A stretch of 64,000 nucleotides of DNA from Elsinoe ampelina (taxonomy: Eukaryota). The notes beneath the pieces are model-generated. The model saw only the letters and a program-made list of their open reading frames with translations, searched no databases and was not told the DNA's origin. Location of the stretch: positions 1 to 64,000 of the forward strand of contig ML992513.1 of the NCBI GenBank assembly GCA_010093995.1. Direction: 5' to 3'. This document shows positions 2,661-31,362 of this stretch, in pieces. Position numbers and translations under genes: made by a program. The first letter of the stretch is position 1; every line of letters begins with the position of its first letter.

Positions 2661-2724
2661 AATACTATATGTTATATACTTCTAGTTTAGAGCTAAGAGT
2701 AGCTCTCCTAGAGGAGAAGGTAAT

Positions 2725-2911
2725 TATAAGGGCTTAGTATTAGAGTAGTACTTAGTAGTAGCTAGTTCTACCTACGTAACGTACTTAAATATTCTACGTA
2801 GCGCTTATACCTAGAGCTTAATAGTAATTACTTCTACTACTAACGGACTATTTAGTTAGATAGGCGTTCTCTATATTACGATATATATAGCTTTAATATA
2901 AGGCGTTAACA
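2725..2911 (+). repeat. 3' LTR of the Gypsy element, preceded by a polypurine tract (2710-2720)
   Basis: AGAGGAGAAGG, then TATAAG (RIPed TGTAAG) ... ending TTAACA. Fot1-like sequence resumes right after 2911, so the retroelement inserted into a Fot1 3' end. Confidence 0.65.
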
Positions 2912-4643: not shown

Positions 4644-4753
4644 TAACTTAAGTGAGGAGCGCGGCTCAGAGCGCGGAACCTCTATCGACTGACATCTTAT
4701 ACATAACTTAACGTTAACTAACTTCGTTAAATTCATGCTGACCTTACGCGGTC

Positions 4754-4862
4754 CACACCTCTCACCTCTCACCTCTCACCTCTCACACCCCACACCTCTC
4801 CCCTCACCACCCCCCTCATACCTCACCCCTCACACCTCACACCTCACATCTCCCACCTCACA
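4754..4862. repeat. Degenerate (CACCTCT)n C-rich low-complexity tandem repeat
   Basis: Four near-perfect ctctcac units followed by degenerate cctcaca/ccccac units. Confidence 0.85.
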
Positions 4863-5346
4863 TTTCACGACTTTCCAATGCTCCACGTGCCGCAGTAGCT
4901 CGCAGCTTCCACGATCTGACCTCAATGCGCCATAACTTGATACAGTTCCATCTAGTTACGATAGTTACCCGAATCCTCTTTCATCGTCCAGCCTGAAGAG
5001 TCACGCAATCGTCGATTTGACTGTCATCTGACCTTTGACTGATAGTACGCTTGTGTGTTGACATTCATCCGCCAGGAATCTGGCTAAGTTATCGAGTTAT
5101 CTGCAGCCCTCATTGCCCACCGAAGAGTCTGACAACAATGACACTTCTCGTCCTCTCCGCTCTCATCCTCTTCTAAGTTATGCTGGGAGTATTCCACTCC
5201 ATCCCGCTGCTTGCCGTTTCACTCTCATTCCCTTCTCTTGCCTTCCGTCTCGTTCTATCTCATTCCGTCTACTTTCAACCCAATGCAGAGCCTCAGATCC
5301 TCAGTCTCGGTCCGCGGGGTGACCAGACCTGGTCATGCTGTCGATA

Positions 5347-7222: not shown

Positions 7223-7224
7223 TA

Positions 7225-8399
7225 GCTGTTACAAACATCGAATCGCTAGTTAAGTAATATATCTCGAGAATGACGTTATATTTAGAATCGACAACTACGG
7301 CTCTTACGTTGTTACGGCGCGAAATTAAATAACAGCGACAGCTTCTTAAGACGCGTAAGTATAAGAAAAGTGGTAAGCACGTCGCTGTCGAAGGCCGTTT
7401 CGTCTTTAGTGAGCTAGAGACAATCGATATCCTTCGTAAGTTAAGGCCGAAGTAGCGTCAAAGAAGAAGAAGGGCAAAAAGCGTAAAAAATCGCTTATAC
7501 CGTTGACTTCACCGGAGGAATCTGAAGAGGAACAGCAATCGTCTATACCGTCGAATTCTAAGGACAAACTAGCTTGATTTGATAGAGTAATTGCATGATT
7601 TAACGTAACTCACCTACGAGCGGTTTGTCCCTACAAGCGGTTTACAAAATTAGCTTTTTTTACCTTTTTAGTAATATCTCTATAAAACCTTAATATCCTA
7701 GCCTAATATTATATATAATGCTAGATACTCTATAGATCTATATATACTACTAATCTTATTACTATAGAAGCTTAACTACTACTAGTATTTAGATATTAAG
7801 TTTTCTAGATTTTATAACTTAAATTAGCTATATATTAGCTTTAAGAGAGTTATAATAAGGAATTGAAGAAATATTATATAGCTACTACTAAAATTTATAT
7901 TATATTATATTATTCTAGTATTAAATATATCTCTATTAAGAGATAATCTAGTTTTTAAGAGAATTTAACCTAAAAATAAAATTTTTAAGTTTTTAAAGCT
8001 ACTTTTTAGACTTAGCTACTATAAGAGCTTAATACTTCTACTATCTATCTTATATCTAACTAAATATAGTAAATATTCTAAATTACCTCTTCTATATAAA
8101 TATTTATTAAGAAAATTAGTAGTAAATTTTAGAAATCTAAAAGTCTATATTATAATAGCACTTCTAAGTTTTATATAGTGTCTTTGATACAACTTATAGT
8201 TCTAATATCTTACTAGTCCTATCTTAAATTTAAAGCTATATTAGCTATAGTTCGTAGAGATATTACTAAAAAGGTACAAAAAAGTAACTTTGTGAACCGC
8301 TCGTGGGGACGAACCGCTCGTGGGTGAGTCACGTTACCTCGTTGATGCCTTTTTGCGTGACCGGACTTTAGGAGTGACCGGACTTCCGGTGGATGACGT
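7225..8399 (+). mobile_element. 3' fragment of a Fot1-like subfamily E element, split by a MITE
   Basis: Transposase C-terminus (RKRKKSGKHVAVEGRFVFS). 3' TIR ..GTGACCGGACTTTAGGAGTGACCGGACTTCCGGTGGATGACGT followed by TA. Confidence 0.85.
7603..8334. mobile_element. ~730-bp non-autonomous MITE with subfamily C TIRs
   Basis: ~90-bp imperfect TIRs beginning ACGT(G/A)ACTCACC(C/T)ACGAGCGGTT. TA duplication; flanks rejoin to the uninterrupted GATTTACCTCGTTG seen in other copies. AT-rich non-coding interior. Confidence 0.92.
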
Positions 8400-9030
8400 T
8401 ACACGTGTCGACTGTGTTGTTCCAACTGCACACCTCTGGTGTAGGCTTGTATCTTTTTGCTCTCCTCATGGTTTTTAGCGCGTTCGTGACCGGGCCTCTG
8501 AGGGAACTGCGTCATGATCGATCAGAAATCTTAAGTTGAGGCTGTTTTCCGCGAAGTGAGAACATTGCGGGGTGTCGTTTTGTGATCAGTGTGCCATGCT
8601 GATCAGGCAGATAAGATGCAGATTCCTCTACGACGAATGTGCGTGTTTTTCAACCTCCTGACGAGTGTTCGAGAATCACGATGAGACAATAATAGCGGGA
8701 AGAAGAATCGAAGCACACTGAACAGAACGAAAGATGAGCTTTCGAGTGGAGACGCCTTGCAGTTGATTAAAGCTTGGCAACGCGACAAGGAATGCCTTCT
8801 TTTACGCGCTGCATCATCTGGCAAACCGGAGTCATTTACACAGTCCTGAGGACAATGACAAGAGCAGAGAGGATGACAGATTAAGCCCAAGTCAGGACTG
8901 GAGGACTGCTGCTGGCTGAGGACTGTCAAGCAGAGAAGGCACGAGCATGGCAGCTAAAGACTCGGATGATGCTGCATGGGGTCGTGCGGTGATAACTTAA
9001 CTTATGAAATCTTTGTCACAGCATGGCATA

Positions 9031-9768
9031 ACGTCATTCCCCCACGATCCGGTCACCCCCACAATCCGGCCACAGCCCTATAAATTTTACACGTTATCTT
9101 CGTGACTATTCTTCCTTCTTACGTGACAAATATCACAATTTAAATTATTCTATCATGTATACTGAAGCTAACGTTCAGGCCGCTATCTATAGCTATCGAC
9201 ACGACAAATACGACTTAATTCGAAAGGCTGCTAACGTGTTTAGAATCCTATACTCTACGCTTTAAGGTCAATTACAAGGACAATAATTGCGTGTCGAGAA
9301 TAATATATTAAGCTAATTGCTTACTCCGGCCGAAGAAGACACACTTGTAGCCTATAGCGTTTAGCTCGATAGCCTCGGAACACCTGCAACTCCCGCGTTA
9401 TTCTATCAATTAGCAATTAAGATAATCCGTCACCGGGCACGAGTATCCGACAACAACCTTCCTACATCTTTAGAGCAGCCTATTAGAAAGAACTAGCTAT
9501 TACAACTACGTAAATGTCATCTGCAGCTTTAAAGTCTCTACACACGCTAGCTAGAGTTATCACGGCTTAAAGCTAGAACATACGAGGCTGTTGCGCCGTT
9601 CTTTAACGCATTATCTAGCCTATTTAAACAACATAACTATCTACTAACTAACATCTATAACCTCGACGAGGTAGGTTGTATAGTTAGAATAACACAGTCG
9701 ACACGTGTACTAGTTAGTACTAAAAACAACCACCGCCGAAAGAAGGCTAGAAAACGCATTATTAGCTA
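9031..9768 (+). mobile_element. 5' part of a Fot1-like subfamily A element
   Basis: TA + ACGTCATTCCCCCACGATCCGGTCACCCCCACAATCCGGCCAC; ATG at 9155; truncated by the subfamily B TIR. Confidence 0.9.
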
Positions 9769-11645
9769 ACGTCGTGCGTCCACAAGCGATGCGCGTCCAC
9801 AAGCGACGTACACCTCCATTTTTTTTACGCGTTAACTTTGTAACTAACCTTCCTTTTTACGCGACAACAATCGAAACTTGAGCTGTTTTATTATGTATTC
9901 TGAAGCTGATATTGCTGCCGCCCTCGAGGGCTATCGACACGAGCAATTCAGCTCGTTAAGCGCTGCTGCCGACGCGTTTAAAATCCCGCGTGCTACGCTT
10001 CGATATCGTTACTACGGTCGACAATCACGTACTACACGAAACGAAGGACGTCAATTACTATCTCCAGCTGAAGAACAGACACTTGTAACTTATATCCTTC
10101 AGCTCGATAGCCTTGGAACACCTGCGACGCCTTGCTTTGTCCGTGAGCTTGTTATCGAGATAATTTAACACCGAGTACATCTATCGAATAACGAACTTCC
10201 CCCGTCTCTACTACACCCTATTAGTAGGACGTGGATACGTCGACTATATAAACGACATCCAGAGATTAAGACGCGTCAATCCCGTTAACTAGAGTCGTCA
10301 CGGTTTAAAGCTGGAACCTACGAGGCTATTACACCGTTCTTTAACGCGTTATCCGACTTGTTCGAAAAGCACAACTATCTGCCAACAAACGTATATAACC
10401 TCGACGAGGTAGGCGCTAGCGTCGGTTTAACTTAATCGACGCAAGTAGTAGTCAGTTCAGATCCTAGCCGTCGTCGAAAGAAGGCTAGAAAACGCGTCGT
10501 CGGCCGACAGGAGTGGATATCAATTCTAGAGTGTATTTGAGCCTCCGGAGACACGCTACCCCCCCTTGTAATATACAAGGCTAAAAACCTCTAAACAAAC
10601 TAGATTCCAGATCCGTGGCCAGCCGGATAGCGATTCTCAACATCGAATAAAGGCTGGACAAGCAACGCACACGGCCTAGAGTGGCTTACGACGATTTTCG
10701 AACCAGAAACACGTGACATTAACGGCCGTCGACGCCTCCTCGTTCTAGACGGCCATAGCTCGCACGTTACGGCCGCCTTTGCCTTCTTCTGTTTCGAGTA
10801 TAACATCGATCTAGTTGTCTTTCTACCACATGCGTCGTATATCCTTTAGCCCCTCGACGTTGCTTGTTTTTCGCCGTTAAAGACAGCCCTTACGAAGGAG
10901 ATCGACAATCTAATACGTCTCGATTTAGGCCGAATACACCGAGTATAGTAGACCGAATCTTACACAAACGCCAGAATACGCGCTCTAACCGCAAGCAATA
11001 TTCAGGCTGGTTTTAGACATTCCGGAATCTATCTAATAAGTCCTATTACGGTGCTTGCAAATTTGCTACACGAATCACGTAATCGACTAGTTACTCCAAC
11101 GGAAAGTATAACGGAAAACGGCCAATTCGACTCGGAAGTCTTGCGGTTAGGGTCGCCACAATCCGGCGCAAGTTTACGTACGGTCAACTGTAGTCTGAAC
11201 GCGCGTATAGCTGTTGTCGACGTCGAAACACCGGTTAAGCGATATATCTCAAAAATGACGTTACAATTCGAATCGTCGACGGCGGCCTTATTACTACTTC
11301 AACGGGAGGTTTAACAACAGCGCTAGCTTCTAGAGACGCGTAAGCGTAAGAAAAGTGGTAAGCGCGTCGCTATCGAAGGCCGGTTCGTCTTTAGCGAGCA
11401 AGAAACGATTAATATCCTTCGTAAGGCCGAAGAAGAGACAAAGAAGAAGAAGCAAAAAAAGCATCAAAAGTCACTTACGCCGGAGCCTATACCGGAGGAT
11501 ACGGAGGAGGAAGAGCCAGAGCCTATTAAGTCTGATTCTGGAGACGAACTAGCCTGATTGAATAGAGCAATTGAAGAATTTACCTCGTTGACGCCTTTTT
11601 ATGTGCGTCGCTTGTGGACGCGCGTCGCTTGTGGACGCACAACGT
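9769..11645 (+). mobile_element. Full-length Fot1/pogo-like element, subfamily B, lightly RIPed
   Basis: Matching ~43-bp TIRs containing two CCACAAGCGACGC repeats; TA on both sides. Confidence 0.95.
9893..11557 (+). pseudogene. Fot1/pogo transposase, 555 codons, multiple RIP stops
   Basis: MYSEADIAAAL..; stops at CAA>TAA, TGG>TAG, CGA>TGA; 3' two-thirds nearly identical to 5435-6600. Confidence 0.92.
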
Positions 11646-11647
11646 TA

Positions 11648-12648
11648 TAACGTGCGAGCTGTAGCTGTCTAGAATAAGGAGGCGTCGACAGCTGTTAACG
11701 TTACGTGTTTTAGGCTTAAACACTGTCGATAACTACTTAAATCTATACGCGTTACTTGTCTAGCCTTTATTCGATGTTAAGAATTGCTATCTAGCCGGCT
11801 ACGGGTCCGGAATCTACTACGTTATAAGGTATTTAGCCTTATAAATAACAAGGAGGGGGAGAGCATCTCTAGAGGCTCGTACACACTTAAGGATTAATAT
11901 CTACTCTTATCGGCTAATAACGCATTTTCTAGCCTTCTTTCGGCGGTGGTTGTTTTTAGTACTAACTAGTACACGTGTCGACTATGTTATTCTAACTATA
12001 TAACCTACCTCGTCGAGGTTATAGACGTTAGTTAGTAGATAGTTGTGTTGTTTAAATAGGCTAGATAATACGTCAAAGAACAGCGTAATAGCCTTGTATA
12101 TTCTAGCTTTAAGCCATAACGACTCTAGCTAGCATATGTAGAGACTTTAAAGCTGCAGATGACATTTACGTAGTTATAATAGCTAGTTCTTTCTAATAGG
12201 CTGCTCTAAAGATATAGGAAGGTTATTGTTAGATACTTATACCTAGTAACAGATTATCTCAATTGCTAATTAATAGAATAACGCAGGAGTTATAGGTGTT
12301 CTAAGGCTATCGAGCTAAACGCTATAGGCTATAAGTGTATCTTCTTTAGCCGGAGTAAGCAATTAGCTCGATATATTATTCTCGACACATAATTGTTATC
12401 CTTATAATTAACCTTAAAGCGTAGAGTACGGGATTCTAAACGCGTTAGTAGCCTTTCGAATTAAGTCGTATTTGTCGTGTTAATAGCTATAGATAGTAGC
12501 CTAAACGTTAGCTTTAGTATATATAATAGAATAATTCAAATTGTAATATTTGTCACGTAAGAAGGAAGAATAGTTACAAAGATAACGCGTAAAATTTATA
12601 GGGCTATAGCCGGATTATAGAGGTAACTAGATCGTAGGGGAATAATGT
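11648..12648 (-). mobile_element. 5' ~1 kb of a subfamily A element, inverted relative to 9031-9768
   Basis: RIPed A-type TIR ending at 12648; same RVENN-type linker as the 9031 copy. Confidence 0.88.
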
Positions 12649-12650
12649 TA

Positions 12651-13327
12651 CACGTGTTAACTGTATTATTCTAACTATATAACCTACCTTGTCGAGGTTA
12701 TAGACGTTAGTTGATAGATAGTTATATTGTTTAAATAGGCTAGATAACGCATTAAAGAACAGCGTAATAGCCTTGTATGTTCTAGCTTTAAGCTATAACG
12801 ACTCTAGCTAGCGTATATAGAGGCTCTAAAGCTGCGGATGACATTTATATAGTTATAATAGCTAGTTCTTTCTAATAGGCCGCTCTAAAGATATAGGAAG
12901 GTTATTGTTAGATACTTATACCTAGTGACAAATTATCTTAATTGCTAATTAATAGAATAACATAGGAGTTATAGGTGTTCCGAGGCTATTAAGCTAAACG
13001 CTATAGGCTATAAGCGTATCTTCTTCGGCTAGAGTAAGCAATTAGCCTACTACGTAAGAGTTAGTATATAATTGTTGTTCTTATAATTAACCTTAAAGTG
13101 TTAAATATAGGATTTTAAACGCGTTAGTAGCCTTTCGAATTAAGTCGTATTTGTCGTGTTAATAGCTATAGATAGCGGCCTAAATGTCAGCTTTAGTGTA
13201 TATAATAAAACAATTTAAATTATAATATTTATTAAATAAGAAGGAAAGATAGTTACGAAGCTAATACGTAAAATATTAAGGGGTGTAACTAGACTATAGA
13301 GGTAACCAGACTCCTAGTAGATAACGT
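12651..13327 (-). mobile_element. 5' part of a subfamily E element
   Basis: E-type TIR (rc ACGTTATCTACTAGGAGTCTGGTTAC) ends at 13327; colinear with 23617-24295. Confidence 0.88.
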
Positions 13328-13329
13328 TA

Positions 13330-14127
13330 TTATATATCCTTTAGCTACTTAACGTAGCTTGTTTTTCACTGTTAAAGACAGCTCTTATAAAGGAGATTAA
13401 TAATCTAATATATCTCGATCTAGGCTAAATATACTACGTATAGTAGGCCGAATTCTACGTATATACACGAGAGTATACTCTAACTATAAGGAATATTAAA
13501 TCTAGCTTCGAACACTCCGGTATCTATCTAATAAGCCCTATTATAGTGCTTGCTAATTTGCTATACGAATTATATAATTAACTAGTTACACTAATAGAAA
13601 GTAGCTAATCTAGCTAAAACATCTTATAGTTAGAGTTACTATAATCCGGCGCAAGTTTATATATAGCTAACTATAGTCTTAATATATATATAGCTGTCGT
13701 CGACGTCGAAACACTAGTTAAGCGATATATCTCAAAAATGATATTATAATTTAAATTATTAATAGTAGCCTTAGTACTACTATAATAGAAAGTTAAACAA
13801 TAGTAGTAGCTTCTAGAAACGTATAAGTATAAGAAAAGTAGTAAGCGCGTTACTATTAAAGGCCGGTTTATCTTTAGTAAGTAAGAGATAATTAATATCC
13901 TCTATAACGCTAAAGCAAAGACAAAGAAGAAGAGGGGTAAAAAGCGTAAAAAGCGCCTACGCTAACACCTATACCGGAGGAATTAGAAGAGGAAGAGCTA
14001 TCGGATCGACTATCTAATTTAGAAGACGAACTAGCATGATTTAATAGAGTAATTACATAATTTACCTTATTAATGCCTTTTTGTATAAACCGCTCGTAGG
14101 GATAAACCGCTCGTAGGTAAGTTATAT
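13330..14127 (+). mobile_element. 3' part of a subfamily C element; contains the empty site for the hAT insertion
   Basis: Begins in the SHILQPLDV motif and ends with a C-type TIR (AAACCGCTCGTAGGGATAAACCGCTCGTAGG..). Confidence 0.88.
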
Positions 14128-15175
14128 TACTAAAAACAACTACTGCCGAAAGAAGGCTAGAAAACGCATTATTAGCTAACAAGAGTAGATATTAATCCTA
14201 GAGTATATACGAGCCTCCGGAGATACCCTACCTCCCCTTATTATCTATAAGGCTAAATACCTTATAACGTAGTAAATTCTAGATCTATAGCTAGCTAGAT
14301 AGTAATTCTTAATATTGAATAAAGGCTAGACAAGTAACATACATAGTTTTAAATAGTTATCGACAGTGTTTAAGCCTAAAACACGTAACATTAACAGCCG
14401 TTAACGCCTCCTTATTCTAGATAGCTATAGCTTATACGTTATAGCTATATTTATCTTCTTCTATTTTAAGTATAATATTAACCTTATTATGTTTCTACCT
14501 TATATATTATATATTCTCTAGCTGCTCGACATAGCCTATTTTTCACTGTTAAAGACAGCCCTTACGAAAGAGATTAATAGTCTATTTCGCCTTAATCTAG
14601 GCTAAGTATACTATATATAGTAGGCCGAATTCTACACGCGCGTAGGAGAGTATACTTTAACTATAAGGAATATTAAATCTAGCTTTAAATACTCTAGTAT
14701 CTATCCGATAAGCTCTATTATAGTGCTTACTAATTTGCTACATGAATTATATAATTAATTAGTTACTCTAGCAGAATAGGTCCTATCTAACGAAAATGTC
14801 TTATAGTTAGAGCTACCTTCTAGCGTACTATTATATATAGTTAACTATAATCTAAACGCGTATATAGCCGTCACAAACATCGAATTACTAGTTAAGTAAT
14901 ATATCTTAAGAATAACATCACGTTTAGAATTAATAACTATAGGTCTTATGTTGTTATAGTATAAAATTAAATAATAGTAATAGCTTCTTAAGACGCGTAA
15001 GTATAAGAAAAGTAGTAAGCATATCGCTATCGAAGGCTAGTTTATCTTTAGTAAGCTAGAGACAATTAATATCCTTTATAAGGCCGAAGTAGCCTTAAAG
15101 AAGAAGAAGAGCAAAAAGTATAAAAAATTACTTACACTATTAACTTTACTAGAGGAGTCTAAAGAGAAATAGCTA
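14128..15175 (+). mobile_element. 3' half of a subfamily A element; its terminus continues at 26545-26673
   Basis: GAGAAATAGC-TA at 15174 rejoins TA-TTATCTATACTATCGAATTC at 26545, matching uninterrupted copies (7528-7560, 25340-25372). Confidence 0.85.
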
Positions 15176-17749
15176 ACGCAACTTACCTACGAGCGGTTTA
15201 TCCCTACGAGCGGTTTATATAAAAAGGTATTAACGAGGTAAATTATATAATTACTCTATTAAATTATACTAGTTTATTTTCTAAATTAGATAGTCGATCC
15301 GATAGCTCTTTCTCTTCTAATTCCTCTAGTGTAGGTATTAGCGTAGATTAGTATAACTATTAGAGTAGGGTCGGCCCCTTTAGGTTTAGTACTACACTAG
15401 GGTTTAGGTCGGCCTCTAGCCGGCGTAGTGCCGCTAAGGGCTTAGTAGTACTAGTACTAGCTCCGCACTATAGCTATAATAGTACTATACTAGCACTAGG
15501 TGTAGGTCGAGTTATATACATTCTAGACGTAGTATAGTACTAGGTTAGGTCGGTAGATAAGTAGTATAGTGCTATTAAGTCCTTAGCGTACCTTTACTAG
15601 TATTACACTAGAGTTGCTATTCTTATAGTAAATTCTTATAGTAACTGCTATGTCCTATAACTCTTGTTACTTTTCCGCTCTAAACACTTAAAGTTATAGT
15701 AGGTAAAGGATACTAGAGAGAAGCAAAAGTTATTAATTATTAACTCTTATATATAATTACGACCTAATAGTGATTTATAGAAGATTAACCTAATTAACAT
15801 TATCTATATAACTCCTATAAGCCTATTTTATATACTTAGCTAGTAAGCTATATACTACCTAGAACTAATACCTTATTATCTTATTATCTACTTTATCTAG
15901 AGAATATTCTAGCTTTAGCAAGTTTACTCTTATATAAATTATAACTCTTAACTAGTAAACTAAAGTACTAAAGCTATTAAGTAGAGTCTAAGACTAGAAT
16001 AATTAGTTCTAGGTAGTTTAGCCTTTCTACTAACTTATAGTATAGTTACGGATTGCCTTAATACTATTAGATTACTAGTTAATAGTAAGTATAAGGCTAT
16101 CTAGGGCCTTAATCTTTGCCTAAAGGTTATTAATAAATTTATAGTAAGTAATATTAGCCTAATAAATAATAGAGAGGCAAGTAGTAGATATAGTAGTAGA
16201 TTTGCTTAAATTCTAGCAACTATTAGTATAAGTTATACTATAGCGACGTAAAGGTATACTAGATAGTTATTTAAATATTCCTAAGGAGAGAAAGAAGTAA
16301 CTTAGCTAATAATCTACTTATATTCCTTAGTATAATAATAGCTATTATTAGTATTGTTGTTTTTTTATAATAGACAATAGCTATTGTCTATATTATCGTT
16401 CTTATAATAGGTAATACTAGATATATATACCTTTTAGTTGCTATTTCTTCTTCTTTCTCTTAAACTTCTCTTTCTTGTTATTTAATATCTCCTTCTATAA
16501 TGCCTCCTTCTTATGCTTAACTCTACCTTAACCTAGTAGATCTAATTCTCTTTTAGCCTTATAAGATAACTCCTAGTAACTATACTAGGCCCTTATACCT
16601 ACGTTAGTATAAAGCCTATATCTGCTATATAACTCTTATATATCTTAACTTTAATAACAACTACAAAATCTAAGCCGAATATATCTATAATAACTATAGA
16701 GGTTTAGTACTTTACTATAAAGTCTACTACACTTATAATACCCCTTATAACTTTATAAGTATTTCTAATCTAATCTTTCTCTATAATCTAACGAATATTA
16801 GTATAATATCTTATAGACTAATAATATCTTTAACCTAATTAATATATAGCGCGCTATTAATTGTCTTATTCTCGATAGAAAAGTAGATCTACTCTTACTC
16901 TTTGCTATATACTATAATATTAAACGTAAGTAAGAGAAGTTAAATTACATTAATAATAGTAATAATAGTATTTCTTCCGACAACTAATCTAATTAAGGTA
17001 GCATAGTTAAAGTGTTAGCGGGCTAATAGCTTTAGATAGTTATTAATAATATAGACTTATACTTTATAAAGACTTAATTACGTTACCTCTTCCCGTAAGT
17101 AACTAAAATTAACTATAATAACAGCGTATATAAGCTCTTAAAGTAGAAGTATTTATATTACCTCTAGCTATACTAGTAGTTATATTACTACTCTAGGTAG
17201 TACTATTAGTACTAGTAGTAGAAGCACCTCCCTTATTATTCCCTTTACTATTAGTATTATTCTAGAAAGTAACTTAACTATTATCGGGCTTAAACCTAGC
17301 AAGGAAGTCGAAAGTATAATAAGGTAGATATTAGTAATAGCGTAGAGAGTAGTATTAGTAATAAGTTAGCTAAGGTTATAGGTGCTATAGTAGAAGTAGT
17401 TATTAAGGTCAATAATAAAGAAAGTAGCGCGGAGATTAGTTATAGCTTTAGCCTTTATATTATAGTTAATCTATACGATTTCCTCGTTAACGTTTTTATA
17501 AGCAAATCTAGTATAACTAACGTAGATATAAATATAGTTATATTAAAGATACTAGCGGGTAAGGAAATAAGCTTCCTTAGGGCGGCTAACAAAGGGAGAC
17601 TATTAGCATTAGTAGGTAGAATTATATATAGTAATAAGAAAGATACGCGTAGAAGTGCTTTAGAGTAGGTGTTAGTATAGATACTATAAGAGCGTTATTA
17701 CTTAGAGGCTATTAACTAGATATGCTTAGAATACTAGCCTCTAACCTTA

Positions 17750-20700
17750 GTAACGTTATATAGTAGATCTTTGTCCTTATTATGCCCTTCTTTCTCGTTA
17801 ACCTCTTTATTACTTAAACTATAAGTAGTAATATTTCTAAAGTTGTTACTTATGCTATCTATTCCGCTATTAGTATTATTATTAGCAGTAGTAAAATTGT
17901 CTGTCTTAGCTAATTAGATATTTTAAAAATTATTTTCTACTAGCTTAGAGACTATAATTTATCGGATTGTCTATAGAAGTAATTTATGCCTTTAATTACT
18001 AATAATATTCTTCGCTACATTAAAAACATATTTAATACCTACACTAGCGATTAGTATTATAAGAATATTATAAGTAATATAAGCTAGTTGTAGGAATAAG
18101 TACTTATTTTCTTTCTACTAAAAAAGAATATTAAATTCTAATATTTCTTATATAAGTAAAGTTCTAAGGTAATTTTCTTCTTCTATTCTTATTATATAGA
18201 TATTACTCTACTCTTATAAAAGTGTATTATCTTAGCTAGATACTAGAGGTATAAAGCTACTTCCTGTGTTTAATAAGAAAGGCTTCTTAAACTAGTAAGT
18301 AATAGATAAGGCTAATAAAGGAGGTAGGAGAGTAGTTTAAGGAGAGTAGTTATTATTATAGTAATTAAGGTAGTTAAGGAACTATTTATAGTAAAGTAAT
18401 TTAAAATATAGTTTCTACGAAGTATACTTATATATACTAAGTTTCTAAGTTAAATCTAAAATTATGCTATAATTAAATAAGAAACCTTAACCTCTACTTA
18501 TTTACTTATAATACTTAGAAAGCTTAGTATAACTAGCTTTCGCTATATTTTATATAACTAATAGCTAGTCTAAGTTATTGTCCTCTTTCTAAGTAGACTT
18601 AACTACGTTAAGAAAGTTAAAAAGAGTATTATATATAAGCTATATATATTATACTAATAGCGTATAAGACTAACTTAGCTAGTTAGTTATATCCTTAAAA
18701 TTCTCTAGTATTTAGATAATAATCTTTAGATATGCCTATTCGGTATAGCCGAGGTAAAGGCGTTTTATATCTATATAATTAATAAATGCTATATCTTAAT
18801 TAGCTAGTGCTTTGTTAGTTTAGGACTTATATGTAATTACAATCTCCGCGTTAAGCTATTTATTAATAATTAGTTAAAGTTTAATAGCTTACTTATATAT
18901 ATTATATATTAAGTTCTAATAGGTATAAATATCCTAAACGACTAAGAGTCATTTACGAGAAAGTAGATATACTTAAAGGAATTTAAAGTGTTAGTAGCGT
19001 TAAGGGGATTAGTCGATTATAATATAAATTATATAGAGCTTTAAAATTAGTTAAAAAACTATAAGAAAGAACTATAAGAAATATAACTTACTTTATAGAG
19101 GGAATTTAGAACTAATAGAGTTTTTTAGATATTATAGAGATATTACTTCTTAAGCTTATTAGCTTTCTTATTATCCTTAGTAGTTTCTAGCTATAGAGCT
19201 TAAATAATATCTTATATAACAAGATTAATTATATAGGCTAGATATAGAATTATATTCTTAATAGAGAACTAGTATATATTCTTCTTCTTAAGACCTTATT
19301 ATACTTTAGATTATAGAGTATTATTATTACTTATATTATTTACTATAATAGTAAGAAGATATATATTAATCTTTTTTTTATTTAGAACTCTTAGTAGTTC
19401 TATACTAAGTATAACTCTAGTATACTATCTACTAATTAGTATAAAATCTAGTAGGTACTTACGTACTTACTAGTTGTTATTAATATAGTATACCTTTATA
19501 GCTATAAAACTTAGATAGTTATTTATAGACTAGCTATCTAGCACAATTAAAACTTTTATTTAACTACTAAGATTAGTAAGAAGATTAGACTAAATATCCT
19601 TATAGTACTCTTTTAATAGCTCTAAGGCTCGTGTCTAACCTAGAATATTAGTATATAGCTAGAGGAAATATATAAATTAAAGAAAGAAGGAATTATTAAC
19701 TATTTAGAATAACTAATTATAATTAATAAGAACCTTAATAAGCTCTTTTTTAAATTGTTCTAGAGAGAATTATAGTATATAGGATATAGTACTAGTAGCG
19801 TTCGCTTTTAATTATATTAGAGCTATCTAAGCTACTAATTGTTTATAGCTAGAAGATTTTATATTCTAGTAGCTTTAGTATCTAAGATGTTTTATTAGGT
19901 ATTTATTACTAATTAAGTTTATTATTAGGTGTTATAAAACTCTACTATAGCGGAGATAATATATAAGAGGTATTCTATTAGCAAGCTTAGTACCTTTATT
20001 AAAGTTAGCCTAAATAACTCTATAGTAGGTTATAGAATTCTAGTTTAGTAGGTTTTATATTCCGCTAACTCTTAATTTACTACCTATTAATGTTATAGGC
20101 TACTATATTTTTTAGACTTATATAGCTAGCTATTCTTTAAGTAGTATATCTAGTTAGTAGAGTAGATAGCTAACAATTTTAATAGTTTTATAGAATTAAG
20201 TAGAGAATAGATTATTCTAGTAATTAACATAGAACTCTTTAAGCTTGTAGAGGAGAGATAGTAGTAGCATAATAACTTCTAAGAGTATTTATAGTTAAGG
20301 ATTAACTAAGTCTTTATTAAATACTAATATTTTAAAAGTAGAGATATAGAATATTACTAGCTATATAACAAGGAGTAGAAAACTATAAGAATGCTCTATA
20401 AGAATCTATTAGCTACTCTTAATTTATAGATTAAAAAAATTTTAATAGTATAGAACTAGAAAGCTACTAAAACTATAGTCTAATTTTCCTAACTTAAGGT
20501 TAATCTATTTATTCTTATCTATATTATTCTTACCCTTACTCTCCTTATTATTATTATTACTCTTATCTATTGCCTTATTATTATCTTTATCCTAATTCTC
20601 TTTATTAGAATTATTAAAGTCTCTAGTAGTAACTACCTTATAGTATATTTTAGCTACTTCCTTAGTCTTATACTTGTTAAGTTTCTTATTAAGAAGGTCT

Positions 20701-21600
20701 TTAATCTTAGAGTTATTCTTAACTTCTTCTTTAACCTTANNNNNNNNNNNNNNNNNNNNNNNNNNNNNNNNNNNNNNNNNNNNNNNNNNNNNNNNNNNNN
20801 NNNNNNNNNNNNNNNNNNNNNNNNNNNNNNNNNNNNNNNNNNNNNNNNNNNNNNNNNNNNNNNNNNNNNNNNNNNNNNNNNNNNNNNNNNNNNNNNNNNN
20901 NNNNNNNNNNNNNNNNNNNNNNNNNNNNNNNNNNNNNNNNNNNNNNNNNNNNNNNNNNNNNNNNNNNNNNNNNNNNNNNNNNNNNNNNNNNNNNNNNNNN
21001 NNNNNNNNNNNNNNNNNNNNNNNNNNNNNNNNNNNNNNNNNNNNNNNNNNNNNNNNNNNNNNNNNNNNNNNNNNNNNNNNNNNNNNNNNNNNNNNNNNNN
21101 NNNNNNNNNNNNNNNNNNNNNNNNNNNNNNNNNNNNNNNNNNNNNNNNNNNNNNNNNNNNNNNNNNNNNNNNNNNNNNNNNNNNNNNNNNNNNNNNNNNN
21201 NNNNNNNNNNNNNNNNNNNNNNNNNNNNNNNNNNNNNNNNNNNNNNNNNNNNNNNNNNNNNNNNNNNNNNNNNNNNNNNNNNNNNNNNNNNNNNNNNNNN
21301 NNNNNNNNNNNNNNNNNNNNNNNNNNNNNNNNNNNNNNNNNNNNNNNNNNNNNNNNNNNNNNNNNNNNNNNNNNNNNNNNNNNNNNNNNNNNNNNNNNNN
21401 NNNNNNNNNNNNNNNNNNNNNNNNNNNNNNNNNNNNNNNNNNNNNNNNNNNNNNNNNNNNNNNNATCTATAAGAATTACTTCTATTATAGTAAGAATTAC
21501 TTTCTCTTCCTTAGTTATTTCTTTAGTCTTAATTACTAGAGTATTAGTTATCTCTTTCTCTTTACTAAAGGTTTACTAATCTATAGGATTAGTAGATATT
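17750..21600 (-). pseudogene. hAT transposase (BED-type zinc finger, catalytic core, C-terminal dimerisation domain)
   Basis: De-RIPed CLRCG..HP..KHL (~19880-19960), QDVxTRWNSTYDM (~18900-18940), WWKEN..FPQLARIARDILAIPIASVGVERVFN (~18000-18125). Start and end approximate. Confidence 0.88.
20740..21464. other. Assembly gap (725 N)
   Basis: Run of N within the low-complexity N-terminal region of the hAT transposase. Confidence 1.
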
Positions 21601-21973
21601 ATAGATCGAGAATTAGTAGTAATTTATAAGAGAAGGTAGAATAGTAAGTATAATAGAGAGCAAAATATAAGATATAAGTTTTATAAGAAGAAGATAAAGA
21701 GAGAAGGATTTAGTATTTCTTATACGTATAGTAAATAGAGTAGCTAGAAATATAAGTAATAATAGATATTAATTCTATTATTATACTAATATAAAGTTAT
21801 TATAGTAGAGAATAATAATACGAAATTTATATTCTATATACTATTATAAATTCCTTAATAAGGCTTAATATTTCACTCTTAGTATTTTTGCCTTGCTCTT
21901 TTCTACCTTTATAAATAAATTATAATAATTAATTTAACAAATTTACGTAGCTATAGCTTGTAAGAAATAAGTA

Positions 21974-22537
21974 ATACCTCTAAAAAGAGTAAAGCTAAGA
22001 AAGTAAGGCACTAAGAAAACCACTACTAAAAAGCCTACTATAGGTAGTTACGTAACAAAATTTAGACTAGTATTAACTAGACAAATTCGCTAGGTAAAGA
22101 GCTATAGGTTTAAGCTAGGTAGTTAGTTTCTTATAGTAAATTCTTATAGTCTTATATCTAATATAGTATAGCTATTACTCTCCGAGAGATTTATTACTAC
22201 TAGAAGATAACTAAACTTCTTATATATAAGCTCTCTTTCTCTTGTGTTATTTATAACATTATATAAGATATTAAGTTAACACTTATAAGTAGAGATTTAT
22301 GCTTTACGCTAGATACTATTAAGTGTCTCTAGAAAGTAAGTAAGGTAATACTAGTAGAATATTTTAAAGGTATATTAACTATACATTTAAAATATATAAT
22401 ACCTTATACTAATAACTATAGTAGACTATAATCTTAATACTATCTATACTAAGCGTTATACTATTATATAGAAAGACTCTTAGCTTACTAAGAAATATTA
22501 TAATAAGTACTACCTACTTACTTTCTCTAATTAGTAA
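21974..22537 (+). pseudogene. RIP-inactivated histone H3-like (partly CenH3-like) gene inside the hAT; exons 21974-22121, 22172-22369, 22425-22537
   Basis: Using only C>T/G>A reversals the frame reads MPPKR..[103 protein letters not shown]. Two phase-compatible GT..AG introns (50 and 55 nt). Confidence 0.9.
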
Positions 22538-23616
22538 AACCTCTCCTCTATAATACTATAAGAATAGACTATAAGAAATAGGTAGGTATATTTTTATATA
22601 GACTAGACTATTAAATTTCTTTTCTATAGACTTATTATAATGCTAAAGTATAGTATAATAACTATAGTTACCTTAAAGCCTAACTAAGGCGTAGTGCTAT
22701 AACGTAGTATAATACTAGAATTTAACTCCGGTGCTAATTCGGTATAGTACTATCGTAGTATAGTATAGCGCTATTATAGTGTAGTACTATTCTTACTTAA
22801 CTACGGTGTAGTACTAGTGCTAGTATAGCTTAGTATAGTACTAGTACTAGTGCTAATATAGTAGGGTACGGAGCTAGTGCTATTTAGTTTAGCACTAGGT
22901 GCTAACCTGCTAAGAATAGCTCTATACTAGTACCGGAGTTAGCCTTCGGCCGCTCTAACTCTACTCTAATAGTTATACTAGCGTAGATACTTTTTTACGC
23001 TTTTTGCTCCTCTTCTTCTTTGTTTTTACTTTAGCGTTATAGAGAATATTAATTATCTCTTACTTACTAAAGATAAACTAGCCTTCGATAGTAATATACT
23101 TACTACTTTTCTTACGCTTATATATCTCTAGAAGCTACTACTATTATTTAACTTTCTATTATAGTAGTACTAAGGCTACTATTAATAATTTAAATTATAA
23201 TATTATTTTCGAGATATATTACTTAACTAGTGTTTCGACGTTAATAATAGCTATATATGTATTAAGACTATAGTTAGCCGTATATAAACTTATACTAGAT
23301 TATAGTAACTCTAACTATAAGATGTTTTAGCTAGATTAGCTACTTTCTGTCGGTATAACTAGTTAATTATATAATTTATATAGTAAATTAGTAAGTACTA
23401 TAATAGGACTTATCGGATAGATACTAGAGTATTTAAAGCTAGATTTAATATTCCTTATAGTTAAAGTATATTCTTATATATACGCGTAGAATTCGGCCTA
23501 CTATATATAGTATATTTAGCCTAGATTAAGATATATTAGATTATTAATCTCCTTTATAAGAGCTGTCTTTAATAGTAAAAAATAAACTATGTTAAGTAGC
23601 TAAAGAATATATAATA

Positions 23617-25478
23617 ATATTATCTACTAGGAGTCTAGTTACCTTTATAGTCTAGTTACGCCCCTTAATATTTTATATATTAGCTTCGTAACTATCTTTT
23701 CTTCTTATATAATAAATATTATAATTTGAATTATTTTATTATATATATTAAAGCTAATATTTAGGCTGCTATCTATAGCTATTAATACAACAAATATAAC
23801 TTAATTCGAAAAGCTACTAACGCGTTTAAAATTCTATACTTAATACTTTAAGGTTAATTACAAGAATAATAATTATATACTAACTCTTACGTAGTAGGCT
23901 AATTACTTACTCCGGCTAAAAAAGACATACTTATAGCCTATAGCGTTTAGCTCGATAGCCTTAGAATACCTATAACTCCCGCGTTATTCTATTAATTAGT
24001 AATTAAAATAATTCGTTACTAGGTATAAGTATCTAATAATAACTTTTCTATATCTTTAGAGTAGCCTATTAGAAAGAACTAGCTATTATAACTATGTAAA
24101 TGTTATTTATAGCTTTAGAGCCTTTATATACGCTAGCTAGAGTTATTATAGCTTAAAGCTAGAACGTATAAGGCTATTACGCCGTTCTTTAATGCGTTAT
24201 CTAGCCTATTTAAATAATATAACTATCTATTAACTAACATCTATAACCTCGACGAGGTAGGTTATATAGTTAGAATAATATAGTTAATATATATACTAGT
24301 TAGTACTAAAAATAACTACTGCTAAAAGAAGGCTAGAAAATATATTATTAGCTAATAAGAGTAGATATTAATCCTTAAGTATATACGAGCCTCTAGAGAC
24401 ACTCTACCTCCTCTTATTATCTATAAGGCTAAATACCTTATAACGTAGTAGATTCTAGATTCGTAGCTAGCTAGATAGCAATTCTTAATATCGAATAAAG
24501 GCTAGACAAGTAATATATATAGTTATAAGTAGCTTATAACTATCTTTAAGCCTAAAATATGTAATATTAATAGCTATTAATACCTCCTTATTCTAGACAG
24601 CTATAGCTTATATATTATAGCTATATCTACCTTCTTCTATTTTAAGTATAATATTAACCTTGTTATGTTTTTTCCTTATATATTATATATTCTCTAGCTA
24701 CTTAACGTAGTCTATTTTTTACTATTAAAGATAGCTCTTATAAAAGAGATTAATAATCTATTTTGCCTTAATCTAGGCTAAGTATACTATATATAGTAGG
24801 CCGAATCTTATATATATATATAAGAGTATACTCTAACTATAAGGAATATTAAATCTAGCTTTAAATACTCTAGTATCTATCCTATAAGCTCTATTATAGT
24901 GCTTGCTAATTTACTATACAAATTATATAATTAATTAGTTACTCTAGTAGAATAGGTCCTATCTAACAAAAATGTCTTATAGTTAGAGCTATAATCTAGC
25001 GTACTATTATATCTAGTTAACTATAATCTTAACACGTGTATAGCTATTATAAACATTAAATCGCTAGTTAAGTAATATATCTTAAGAATAATATTATATT
25101 TAGAATTAATAACTATAGCTCTTATGTTATTATAGTATAAAATTAAATAATAGTAATAGCTTCTTAAGATATATAAGTATAAGAAAAGTAGTAAGTACGT
25201 CGCTATTAAAGGCTATTTTGTCTTTAGTAAGCTAGAGACAATTAATATCCTTCGTAAGACTAAAGTAGTATTAAAGAAGAAGAAGAGTAAAAAGTATAAA
25301 AAATTACTTATACTATTAACTTTACTAGAAGAATCTAAAGAGAAATAGTAATCGTCTATACTATCGAATTCTAAGGACGAACTAGCTTAATTTAATAGAG
25401 TAATTATATAATTTACCTTGTTAATACCTTTTTATATAACTAGACTTTAGGAGTAACTAGACTTCTAGTAAATAACGT
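23617..25478 (+). mobile_element. Full-length subfamily E Fot1-like element, heavily RIPed
   Basis: E-type TIRs at both ends with TA duplication; flanks rejoin the host C transposase. Confidence 0.92.
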
Positions 25479-26546
25479 TATATAAGAGAGAAACATAATA
25501 AGGTTAATATTATACTCGAAATAGAAGAGGGTAAATATAGCTATAACATATAAGCTATAGCTGTCTAGAATAAGAAGGCGTCGATAGCTGTCGATATTAC
25601 ATATTTCGGGCTTAAACACTGTTAATAACTACTTAAAACTATACGCGTTACTTGTCTAGCCTTTATTTAATATTAAGAATTACTATCTAGCTAGCTACGG
25701 GTCTAGAATCTACTACGTTATAAGGTGTTTAGCCTTATAAATAACAAGGAAGAGAAGTATATCTCTAGAGACTTATATATACTCTAGAATTAATATTTAC
25801 TCTTATTAGCTAATAATATATTTTCTAGTCTTCTTTTAGTAGTAGTTGTTTTTAGTAGTAACTAGTACACGTGTTAACTATGTTATTTTAACTATATAAC
25901 CTACCGTGTCGAGGTTATAGATATTAGTTAGTAGATAGTTATAATATTTAAACAAGTTAGATAATATATTAAAGAATAACGTAATAGCCTTATATATTCT
26001 AGCCTTTATACATAGCAATTCTAGCTACTATAACTAAAGGCTTTATAGTTGTAGATGTCGTTTCTATAGCTAGAATAGCTAGTTCTTACTAATAGGCTAT
26101 AATAGAGATATTAGAAGTATATTATCTAAAACATGTACTTAGTAATAGATTATCTTAATAATAAGCTCTAGTGTAAAGTATAGCGTTATAGGCGTTTCTA
26201 AGCTATCGAGCTAGTTAAGATAGTTAATAAGTACTTCTTCTTTAGCTAGTAATAGTAATTAATATAGTAGATTCTTTATAGTCTATAATTATTATTCTTA
26301 TAATTAGCTAATAAGCATTATAGGTAGAATCTTATATACGTTAGTAGCCTTATAGATTAAGTTAAATTTATCGTGCTAATAGTTATAGATAGCCGCCTAA
26401 ATGTTAGCCTTAGTATATATAATAAATTAGAAATAATTCTAATATTTATTACGTAAGAAAGAAGAATAGTTACAAAGTACACATATAAAAAAAGAAGAAG
26501 TATAAACTATTTATAGAGATAAACTACTCGTAGGTAAGTTATATTA

Positions 26547-26673
26547 TTATCTATACTATCGAATTCTAAGGACGAACTAGCCTAATTTAATAGAGCAATT
26601 AATTAATTTACCTCGTTAATGCCTTTTTATATAACTAGATTATAGAAGTAACTAGATTATAGAGAAATAACGT
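26547..26673 (+). mobile_element. 3' terminus and TIR of the subfamily A element
   Basis: rc ACGTTATTTCTCTATAATCTAGTTAC is the RIPed form of ACGTCATTCCCCCACGATCCGGTCAC. Confidence 0.85.
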
Positions 26674-27208
26674 TAGATTATTAATAGAGAATAGAATAAT
26701 AGCTATATAGTATAATATCTAACGTAGACTTATTAAGAGACAAAAAGGGAAAAAAGTATAAGTTAGAAAGTATTTATTAAGTTATTTCTCTTATTAGAAT
26801 CGATCTTAGAAGTGATTTTGTCTCGGATATAGATATAACAGAAAGAGAGACATAATATAACTTAGAGAGAAGCAATTAGGAAGAGAGCGCTTAGTAGAAT
26901 AGTTAATAGCTAAGAGTGTTTAACTAAGTTACCTTATAGATCGAAGTAGTTATATAACTTTAATAAATAGTATAGTGCTAAGTAATTAACTTAAGAGTCC
27001 GGGTCTAATCTTCTATAATTAAACTTAGTAATAAGTTATAATAGCGACCTTTTAAAACTATAACTAATAAGCTAAGACATAAGATGTCCTAAGTTACTTT
27101 AAGTTAATAAAGGTAATTTAGTAGTAACTAAGTTATAAGTATACTATAAGAGTTATAGTAGAGAATAGTACAATAACCTAGAGATGATATAGTTAATAAA
27201 AGATAGTA

Positions 27209-27941
27209 ATGTAATTTACCTACGAGTAGTTTATCTCTATAAGCAGTTTATAAAATTAGCTTTTTTTACTATTTTAGTAATATCTCTACGAACTATAGCT
27301 ATAATAGCTTAAAATCTAGTATAGACCTAGTAGGATACTAGAACTATAAGTTATATTAAGACACTATATAAACCTTGATAGTACTAATAAAATATAGATT
27401 TTTATATTTCTAAATTTTTTTACTAATTTTCTTAATAGATATTAAAACAAATAAGGTAATCTAGAATATTTACTACATTTAGTTAGTTATAAGGTAGATA
27501 GTAGTAATATTAAGCTCTTATAGTAGCTTAGTCTAAAAATTAGCTTAAGAACTTAAAAACTTCTATTTTTAGGTGAAATTTTGCTAAAAGCTAGATTATC
27601 TCTTAATAGAGATAAATTTAAGACTAGAATAAAATAATATAATATAGATTTTAGTAGTAGCTTTATAATATCTTTTAAATTTCTTATAATAAACCTCTTA
27701 AAGCTAATATATAGCTAATTTAAGTTATAAAATCTAGATTTTTTAATATCTAGTTATTAGTTGTAGCTAAGCTTCTATAATAATTAAATTAATAATATGT
27801 ATAGATCTATAGAGCATCTAGCATTATATATGAAATTAGGCTAGAATATTAAGGCTTTATAGAGATATTACTAAAAAGGTAAAAAAAAAGCTAATTATGT
27901 AAACCGCTCGTGGGGACGAACCGCTCGTGGGTGAATTACGT
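27209..27941. mobile_element. Second MITE copy, inverted relative to 7603-8334; marks the AT/GC boundary
   Basis: Same TIRs, interior and length (733 bp); TA-flanked. Confidence 0.92.
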
Positions 27942-27942
27942 T

Positions 27943-28032
27943 ACGGTGTGAGATGGTACGGTGCGAGATGATTACGGTGCAAGATAGTACGGTGCGAGAT
28001 GGTACGGTGCGAGATGGTATGGTGGGCGATGG
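27943..28032. repeat. 15-bp minisatellite (ACGGTGCGAGATGGT), ~6 copies
   Basis: Directly visible tandem units with few substitutions. Confidence 0.9.
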
Positions 28033-29816: not shown

Positions 29817-31362
29817 ATGGGTGCTGTTGGAACTCAGTCGCCTGTAGTAGGCGCCGCATCGCAGTTGAAGACGACACAGGCCAAGCGGCCATTCACTAAG
29901 GTAGGCGCAGTTCGAGGTCTCGATAAATACCGCACAGCTAACGTTGTTCAGGACTTCAAGAGTCTATTTGCCATGTTGATGATCAACCTTTTCAGCCTTC
30001 GACCGGATTTGCAAGGAAAGGCGCGATACAGCTTCACATCACAGGAGGCCATTATTCGGCTACAAAAGCTGCAATTCTCCCGCAATGCTTCAGTACCGGG
30101 ATCCACCTCAAACACGATTACGACGACCACATACAGCATGAGTGAGCTCTTCGCGACGCAGATGTGGGAGTGGTATGCGGAGGCACGATTTGTCGAGCAA
30201 CTCACCGCTGGCGGCTACTTCACCAGCGCAAAATCCACATGGCAGTTGACCCGGAAGGGCATTCGAGTACTTTCGAGATTCGTCCTGAGCAATGGAGTGA
30301 ATGAGGAGGCTGTCACAGAGTTGTTACAACATGAACGATATATGCTTCCTCTCGTCATCCTTGAGAGGGACGACAAGACGGACAAGATCTTCACTGATCG
30401 GACAACCACCGAGCTCATCTTCCGTCGCTTCGCAGGCGCGCGTCCAAACACGAAAGATGTCTCGAACAAGGTCTCGGCCGCGTCCACGGACTCCAATATT
30501 CTTGCAGGCATCCCTGTCACTGTCACTCCCCGCTCGCCCCCAGCCAATTCGCTTTACCAGTTCAATGGCCATGCTTGTCTGGACTGGATCCTCGACAATT
30601 GTATGGTGACCAGTGAGCAGGAGGCCCTCGCGATTGCCAACTTGTTTCTCAGGCATGGCCTCATCTCTGCAGAGCAAGAGAAGGAAGACTTTGAATTAGG
30701 CACTCTCAGTGGCTTCTCTGCTCGGACGAGCGCGATATATAGGATCACAGATCGAGGTCTCGACTCGACCATTTGGGAGCTCAGCCCAAGGCAAAGCATG
30801 GATACGTCGAGGGGCACCCACTCACGGGAAGCCCAGTCCAACTCGGACAAGCTGCTATTTATCCTCGGAGACCCCGCCCTCCGACTCGTCTTCCGAGAGT
30901 TCCTCGACTTGAGACAGTGCGAAGAGAACCTCACCTTCTACTATGAAGTCAAGGAAGTCATGGAGACCTGGGCATCCATCAAGTCAGCACCAGAGGCACA
31001 GATGGAGACTGTCATCGCTTCAGTCCACAGTCTGTACAATGCATTCCTCGTCGACAACGCAGTGTCAGAGGTCAATCTCGGATCCAGATTGCGCAAGGAC
31101 CTCCAGGCCTCGGTTTGCGACCTCTTCCAGACTCCGGATGAGAAGGCAACTCTTCTACGTGCGACACTCGACCTGTTCCTTGCCGCACAAGATAGTATCT
31201 TCGGCCTCATGGCATCGGTAGGTTTCACTCGTCACAAATATTCATGCATTCATACTGACATGATTCCAGGACTGCGTTCCACTCTTCTTGCAACAACAGG
31301 GTAATGACAGGCTGTATATGGACCGATCTGTGCAACGCGGTATCACCCTGCAGGCGCATTGA
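29817..31362 (+). CDS. Regulator of G-protein signalling, FlbA/Sst2-like (DEP-DEP-RGS); introns 29901-29951 and 31218-31269
   Basis: RPFTK|DFKSLFA, TTTTTYSM, WQLTRKG, FRRFAG, DPALRLVFREFL..CEENLTFY, SEVNL, LMAS|DCVPLF; canonical splice sites. Confidence 0.9.

Follow-up and report, generated by a model that had tools for sequence, protein, structure and literature searches.

A hAT element of Elsinoe ampelina encloses a histone H3-like gene

We analyzed a 64,000-nucleotide stretch of Elsinoe ampelina DNA (GenBank assembly GCA_010093995.1, contig ML992513.1, positions 1 to 64,000 of the forward strand), referred to here as the window. The window contains a single copy of a hAT transposon, which repeat-induced point mutation (RIP) has heavily altered and which carries a three-exon gene resembling histone H3 near its right end. 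From the evidence given below, we consider it very probable that this is a RIP-inactivated insertion of an autonomous-type hAT element, and that its intron-bearing cargo belongs to the same lineage as H3L, the H3-like gene of Pyrenophora tritici-repentis. One copy of the element, the one within the 64-kb window, was examined. Its features are listed here by position, with the target site duplications (TSDs), the terminal inverted repeats (TIRs) and the corresponding uninterrupted site.

13957 to 13964, minus strand: corresponding site lacking the insertion ("empty" site) in another, paralogous copy of the host repeat, located by BLAST and local alignment
15341 to 15348, no strand: left TSD, 8 bp, GCGTAGAT, identical to 22981 to 22988
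15349 to 22980, no strand: complete hAT element, 7,632 bp, of which 725 are a run of N
15349 to 15368, plus strand: left TIR, 20 bp, beginning TAGTA, complementary at 20/20 positions to 22961 to 22980
15349 to 15600, plus strand: left subterminal region, of lower AT content (GC 0.43), in which the GGTCGG motif occurs three times
17950 to 18180, minus strand: probable C-terminal dimerisation domain of a hAT transposase (PF05699 Dimer_Tnp_hAT), degraded by RIP
20740 to 21464, no strand: run of 725 N (assembly gap or masked stretch), which conceals the portion of the minus-strand coding region closest to the H3-like gene
21600 to 21973, no strand: spacer of about 375 bp between the H3-like gene and the presumed start (ATA at 21599) of a minus-strand open reading frame (ORF); possible divergent promoter, proposed from sequence only
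21974 to 22537, plus strand: H3-like gene, three exons, about 440 bp inside the right end of the element and pointing outward
21974 to 22121, plus strand: exon 1, lysine-rich tail; start ATA (perhaps ATG prior to RIP); 2 stops in frame; phase 1 end within the T45-equivalent codon
22122 to 22171, plus strand: intron 1, 50 nt, GTTAGT...CTAAT...TAG, phase 1 in the T45-equivalent codon; the exon frame shifts by 2, which equals 50 mod 3
22172 to 22369, plus strand: exon 2, alphaN, alpha1, loop 1 (5 additional residues) and alpha2; 3 in-frame stops
22370 to 22424, plus strand: intron 2, 55 nt, GTATAT...TACTAAT...TAG, phase 1 in the D106-equivalent codon
22425 to 22537, plus strand: exon 3, covering loop 2, alpha3 and an extension of the C terminus; 2 premature stops, followed by TAG TAA at 22532 to 22537
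22961 to 22980, minus strand: right TIR, 20 bp, complementary at 20/20 positions to 15349 to 15368
22981 to 22988, no strand: right TSD, 8 bp, GCGTAGAT

Borders and insertion site of the element

A first-pass annotation of the sequence had delimited a hAT element by its TIRs and TSDs, and these borders were upheld. The duplications flanking the element match at 8/8 positions and the inverted repeats at 20/20. In hAT elements, the TSDs measure 8 bp, and the TIRs are short (about 10 to 25 bp) and have a YARNG-type end. The left TIR reads TAGTA as it stands; a strict reversal of RIP, limited to CpA/TpG, permits CAGTG, which fits this consensus.

The window also preserves a copy of the insertion site as it would look without the element. 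When the window was compared with itself by BLAST, the interval from 15347 to 22978 was found once, while the DNA on either side belongs to a multicopy repeat that stops at 15346 and resumes at 22979. Positions 13957 to 14123 aligned with 15346 to 15180, and 22979 to 24287 aligned with 13964 to 12657, the two alignments overlapping by 8 bp. Moreover, the flanks joined through one copy of the 8-bp sequence aligned to the paralogous repeat without a gap at the junction. Together, the TSDs, the TIRs and the empty site provide in silico evidence of insertion that is as good as such evidence gets.

The cargo gene encodes a histone H3 fold interrupted by two introns

The likeness to H3 is already present in the unaltered sequence. 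A translation of exon 2 as read (22165 to 22372, X at stops) matched solved H3 chains over H3 residues 50 to 109 (E=3.3e-4); in this alignment, loop 1 carries 5 inserted residues. The best 60 of the 146 structure matches to this exon were all H3, with 0 CENP-A or Cse4 among them. The Pfam Histone model gave E=0.017 and 15.8 bits, compared with a cut-off of 26.4. Using tblastn, we searched the whole window with canonical H3 and obtained a sole locus, consisting of 22174 to 22398 (E=9.8e-5) and 22424 to 22495 (E=0.47). The canonical reference was taken from a chimeric or tandem canonical H3 protein; a protein search with exon 2 led to 11 proteins, and the four inspected were all of this type. 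A word-seeded protein search with exon 2 returned no match. Negative results of such searches are weak evidence here, because RIP destroys the shared 5-mers on which they depend.

We also scored the exons codon by codon against H3 in a RIP-aware manner, allowing only reversals between CpA and TpA. As a null, we drew stretches at random from the same RIPped DNA and scored them likewise. Exon 2 scored 162, compared with 69.3 +/- 10.5 for the null (maximum, 117; 0/400 stretches as high), and exon 3 scored 89, compared with 47.0 +/- 7.8 (0/300 as high). Exon 1, which encodes the tail, reached 80, compared with 56.9 +/- 8.7 (3/300 as high). We conclude that the histone fold is real and that the tail is weakly, marginally H3-like. 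Identity to canonical H3 was 50/133 as read, 81/134 after strict reversal and 95/135 after lenient reversal; since the reversal was steered towards H3, the latter two values are upper bounds.

This steering raises the concern that AT-rich junk was turned into a histone by selective "de-RIPping." It does inflate identity, and exon 1 taken by itself barely beats the null, its score being reached by 3 of the 300 random stretches. Conversely, the unaltered translation already matches H3 in the structure, tblastn and Pfam searches, and exons 2 and 3 outscored every one of the random RIPped stretches (400 and 300, respectively). The artefact explanation is refuted by these two lines of evidence, and the chance we would still give it is negligible. 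Thus, the three-exon plus-strand frame with an H3 fold that the first-pass annotation had described was recovered, all three pieces matching H3 at the positions listed above.

The gene is not an ordinary H3. The tail starts I/M-P-L/P-K and lacks ARTK and both ARKS motifs, as read and after reversal. Position 68 is S, F84 is kept, and loop 1 is 5 residues longer. These features had all been noted in the first-pass annotation and were all observed. The pre-RIP residues that it quoted, such as LPFSR, are permitted by reversal, but each represents one possible reversal and not a unique one.

The two spacers between the exons have the appearance of fungal introns. Each starts with GT, ends with TAG and has CTAAT 10 to 20 nt upstream of the acceptor, and the removal of 50 and 55 nt restores the frame exactly. 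A single CpA reversal converts CTAAT to CTAAC, the fungal branch-point sequence, and a single TpG reversal converts GTATAT to GTATGT. Since it retains two intron-like spacers, the gene is not a processed copy, in agreement with the DNA-level origin proposed earlier. The locus is thus a divergent H3, distinct from the ordinary H3 of the host, carried as cargo inside a hAT element bounded by TIRs and TSDs.

RIP has inactivated the element

RIP is near saturation in the element. Its GC content is 0.25 to 0.26, and the TpA/ApT ratio is 1.8 to 2.0, compared with 0.56 in the neighboring genes. The (CpA+TpG)/(ApC+GpT) ratio is 0.17 to 0.18, compared with 1.28 in the same genes. The spliced H3-like frame contains 7 premature stops in addition to the terminal TAG TAA, and all of its in-frame stops (9/9) are TAA or TAG. 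This copy is a RIP-killed fossil without present function: the H3L frame is broken, and the transposase can be recognized by its dimerisation domain only. Of the sequencing runs listed as containing this DNA, none is RNA and two are DNA, both from one study that may be its source.

A probable transposase remnant lies on the opposite strand

A probable remnant of the hAT transposase was detected in a translation of 17851 to 18300 on the minus strand with X at stops, of which residues 41 to 117 matched PF05699 Dimer_Tnp_hAT (E=3.8e-4; 20.6 bits, just under the cut-off of 21.4). This match came from a tiled search, which recovered the dimerisation domain only; long six-frame translations of the element, again with X at stops, gave no Pfam match. 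An RNase H-like DDE core and a BED zinc finger had no Pfam match in any frame on either strand, and RIP together with the run of 725 N may mask them. A word-seeded protein search with the RIPped dimerisation segment found no match, which is weak evidence for the reason given above.

The H3-like gene had been described as lying head-to-head with its transposase. The orientation is consistent with this, as the dimerisation domain is on the minus strand, but a start or N-terminal domain of the transposase was not detectable. The presumed minus-strand start at about 21599 is ATA, followed by an open-looking stretch that enters the run of N. In the intact element of P. tritici-repentis, H3L faces a separate ORF, the "central ORF," and not the transposase; by analogy, the head-to-head pairing with the transposase itself may be wrong in detail.

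About 2.5 kb (15369 to 17900) separates the left TIR from the 3' end of the transposase remnant. No domain was recognizable in this interval on the plus or the minus strand, and the window contains no second copy of it. Additional cargo, an ORF that has decayed or a nested insertion of greater age may account for it.

The cargo shares its introns and unusual residues with Pyrenophora H3L

Histone genes in hAT elements have been described before, and two papers provide the closest comparisons. Manning et al. (2013, PMC3538342) described in P. tritici-repentis a 5.6-kb "transduplicating" hAT element with a transposase, the "central ORF" and the histone H3-like gene H3L, which confirms in print an association that the first-pass annotation had also mentioned. 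H3L is present in 26 nearly identical copies, read as a recent expansion, and expressed sequence tags exist for it. According to the authors' alignments, it is neither H3 nor CenH3. Silent changes only were reported for 9/26 ORFs, a missense change for 3 and a frameshift for 2, and the authors suggested that the H3L genes "may have undergone drift" (PMC3538342). Dhillon et al. (2019, PMC6710886) found that hAT elements of six Mycosphaerellaceae carry H3-like sequences altered by RIP, the elements having 8-bp TSDs and 18- to 20-bp TIRs. The copies in Pseudocercospora fijiensis were seen to be intron-less, from which the authors inferred the capture of a host H3 transcript. Most of the P. fijiensis matches of 71 to 100 residues cover the third exon of the host gene only (PMC6710886).

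We compared the window gene by eye, codon by codon, with the consensus sequences for P. tritici-repentis, Cercospora zeae-maydis and Sphaerulina musiva given in supplement 2 of PMC6710886; the comparisons of introns, residues and gene position that follow are all of this kind. Like the window gene, Pyrenophora H3L lies at the right end of its element and faces outward, with about 480 bp separating it from a divergent ORF (about 375 bp in the window). Both genes have two phase 1 introns in the same codons, at the slash in K-A-G/T-V-A-L-R-E-I and Y-F-E/D-C-N. They share S68, V70, Y103, N110, S124 and Y130 as read, and C107 and a C-terminal extension with L-L-A-F once the window gene is strictly reversed. 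All of the positions that the two genes share noncanonically are invariant in the canonical H3 reference. Because the codons and phases of both introns, the six residues, C107 with the extension and the position in the element are all shared, the window gene looks like a member of the Pyrenophora H3L cargo lineage rather than the product of a new capture event. Its intron positions and phases, together with the shared noncanonical residues, also favor the long maintenance as element cargo that had been suggested from the window alone.

Several points weigh against this reading. The tail of Pyrenophora H3L begins MARTK and its loop 1 has the canonical length, while the window gene has an MPPK-type tail and 5 more residues in loop 1. 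The TIR sequences of the two elements are unrelated, and 11- to 20-mer words from the TIR and the exon interiors of the window gene were not found in the published consensus file by a text search, in which line breaks can hide matches. The kinship with the P. tritici-repentis, C. zeae-maydis and S. musiva genes was judged by eye. If host H3 genes of Dothideomycetes have introns at the same two codons, the intron positions would not separate common descent from independent genomic captures. As to the element itself, the Pfam scores of both the Histone and the hAT domains fall under the curated cut-offs, and, because of the run of 725 N, its two halves are connected by nothing more than the assembly, the agreement of the TSDs and the continuity of the flanks.

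Alternative origins of the cargo gene

One competing origin is an independent event, in which a local hAT element captured a genomic H3 gene of its Elsinoe host together with its introns, the odd residues being due to drift after capture and to RIP. Such an event would resemble the host H3 capture that Dhillon et al. proposed for the Mycosphaerellaceae (PMC6710886), and it would explain a tail and a loop 1 unlike those of Pyrenophora H3L. It would also fit the scarcity of shared DNA words: no 11-mers of the TIRs or internal DNA are shared with the published elements except for two words of a generic kind, the subterminal TTTAGGTCGG and AAGCTAGGTAG at the end of exon 1, each found once and in C. 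zeae-maydis only. On the other hand, it would leave to coincidence the six noncanonical residues shared as read, C107 and the similar C-terminal extension shared after reversal, the position in the element, and both intron positions and phases. As most P. fijiensis matches of 71 to 100 residues cover the third exon of the host gene only (PMC6710886), host H3 would be expected to have no intron near codon 106, and the D106 intron is therefore probably specific to H3L. For these reasons we regard independent capture as improbable and favor descent from the lineage that includes Pyrenophora H3L.

The first-pass annotation had also pointed to features of CenH3. A longer loop 1, the loss of Q68 and a divergent tail are hallmarks of CenH3 proteins such as CENP-A and Cse4, and the window gene has 5 additional residues in loop 1, no Q at position 68 and a tail unrelated to that of H3. 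A cargo derived from CenH3, or working as one, might target the element to centromeres. However, the gene retains F84 and is located within a transposon instead of at a host locus, and the structure matches listed (the best 60 of 146) were all H3. Furthermore, the loop 1 of Pyrenophora H3L, which by shared residues is the closest relative, is of canonical length, and Pyrenophora H3L was reported as neither H3 nor CenH3 (PMC3538342). The CenH3 flavor was thus not sustained, and we consider this origin or function highly improbable. Variation within H3L is the better reading of both the long loop 1 and the loss of Q68; for Q68 this follows from S68 being common to Pyrenophora H3L, which does not have the loop insertion.

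Possible biology of the living family

In a living relative of this element, mobilization would occur by hAT cut-and-paste, generating 8-bp duplications. H3L would be transcribed from the divergent region of about 0.4 kb that it has in common with the neighboring minus-strand ORF, and its transcript would be spliced twice. The predicted product is an H3 variant able to pair with H4, whose tail no longer has the K9 and K27 contexts. We speculate, with a level of confidence that leaves this clearly on the unlikely side, that the variant could be deposited where the element is active and blunt its silencing by H3K9/K27 methylation. This is the role that we prefer, on the basis of the missing tail motifs and the apparent long retention.

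A neutral passenger, picked up once and of no benefit to the element, is about as doubtful an explanation, in which case the conservation seen in Pyrenophora would reflect the youth of the copies only. The near identity of those copies, the recent expansion that the authors read from it and their mention of drift (PMC3538342) are compatible with such a passenger, as are the copies seen in the Mycosphaerellaceae (PMC6710886) and the copy in the window, all of which are RIP-dead. The tally of Pyrenophora ORFs, with 9/26 showing silent changes only, 3 a missense change and 2 a frameshift (PMC3538342), argues against it. In addition, if the Elsinoe and Pyrenophora genes form one lineage, then the fold, the introns and the position have been kept across two orders, and such retention would be hard to obtain without selection.

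Taken further, H3L may be one old transposon-encoded histone variant, with two introns of its own, and not the result of repeated pickups. A hAT lineage would then have carried it in three or more orders of Dothideomycetes, namely Pleosporales (Pyrenophora), Myriangiales (Elsinoe) and Mycosphaerellales (Cercospora, whose consensus has the same intron positions). We advance this tentatively, as a possibility somewhat short of an even chance. If it is true, the intron-less copies of Pseudocercospora and Sphaerulina would be secondary, and their reading as captured transcripts of host H3 would need revision. The long retention would further imply some service to the element, for example that of a histone lacking K9 and K27 contexts in weakening heterochromatic silencing.

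Genomic surroundings of the element

The window falls into two compartments with a sharp switch at 28000. The first 28 kb are AT-rich (GC about 0.18 to 0.49), and the remainder bears genes (GC about 0.50 to 0.61). The hAT element is nested, inside the AT-rich compartment, in a Tc5/pogo-like repeat. Most of 1 to 15346 and 22981 to 28000 consists of nested or tandem copies of this one repeat, with 65 to 91% mutual identity. A less mutated copy (6479 to 7126, minus strand) encodes HTH_psq and Tc5 transposase DNA-binding domains, which identify the repeat as a pogo/Tc5-like DNA transposon. The copies at 4.6 to 12 kb (GC 0.35 to 0.49) are much less RIPped than those at 12 to 28 kb.

One gene past the switch encodes an RGS/DEP (FlbA-like) protein (29817 to 31301), with identities of 96% to Elsinoe ampelina, 98% to E. 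batatas (46% query coverage) and 88% to E. fawcettii proteins. Other genes past 28000 encode a SOG2 RAM-pathway protein (41959 to 44415), an NPHP3_N (NLR-type) protein (55096 to 59763) and a DENN-domain protein (60529 to 63888).

Comparison with published hAT-borne histone genes

The association of hAT elements with H3-like genes is already published for seven Dothideomycetes (PMC3538342, PMC6710886), and the window provides a further example. A full-text literature search found no report linking Elsinoe (order Myriangiales), hAT and histone H3. The copy described here extends the published cases to a third fungal order, and through its introns and residues it ties dead, RIPped copies to the sole intact and transcribed family, that of Pyrenophora H3L. 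If this link is true, the histone is a long-kept transposon gene rather than an accidental passenger, and its function would be worth testing where H3L is still intact. The same link would call into question the published inference of captured transcripts for the Mycosphaerellaceae copies. Transposons carrying their own histone are rare.

Beyond the differences in tail, loop 1 and TIRs described above, the Pyrenophora and Elsinoe elements differ in state and in size. The copies in P. tritici-repentis are intact and transcribed and measure 5.6 kb, while the window copy is RIP-dead and measures 7.6 kb including 725 N. The window element also has the unexplained DNA of about 2.5 kb between the 3' end of the transposase and the left TIR.

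In its condition, the window copy is closer to the Mycosphaerellaceae elements, whose H3-like copies are likewise heavily RIPped within AT-rich blocks, with 8-bp TSDs and TIRs of 18 to 20 bp beginning TAG (PMC6710886). Those elements differ in being about 9.5 kb long, in carrying one or two H3-like copies, in occurring hundreds of times and in residing in another host order. Their copies were also reported as intron-less (PMC6710886), whereas the window gene has two intron-like spacers. The S. musiva consensus contains two different H3-like copies. Copy 1 is uninterrupted at both intron sites, and its loop 1 exceeds the usual length by about 5 residues. Ahead of copy 2 there is an intron-like stretch, GTAAGT...TACTAAC...TAG.

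The C. zeae-maydis consensus keeps a GKAPRK piece of the tail and does not have the residues common to the Pyrenophora and window genes. Its H3-like gene nevertheless contains GTAAGT...TAG spacers at the T45- and D106-equivalent codons, in the same phase as the introns of the window gene. These spacers sit uneasily with the inference of transcript capture from intron-less copies (PMC6710886). The C. zeae-maydis element further resembles the one in the window in having a GGTCGG-type subterminal motif, and the word TTTAGGTCGG is present in the subterminal regions of both.

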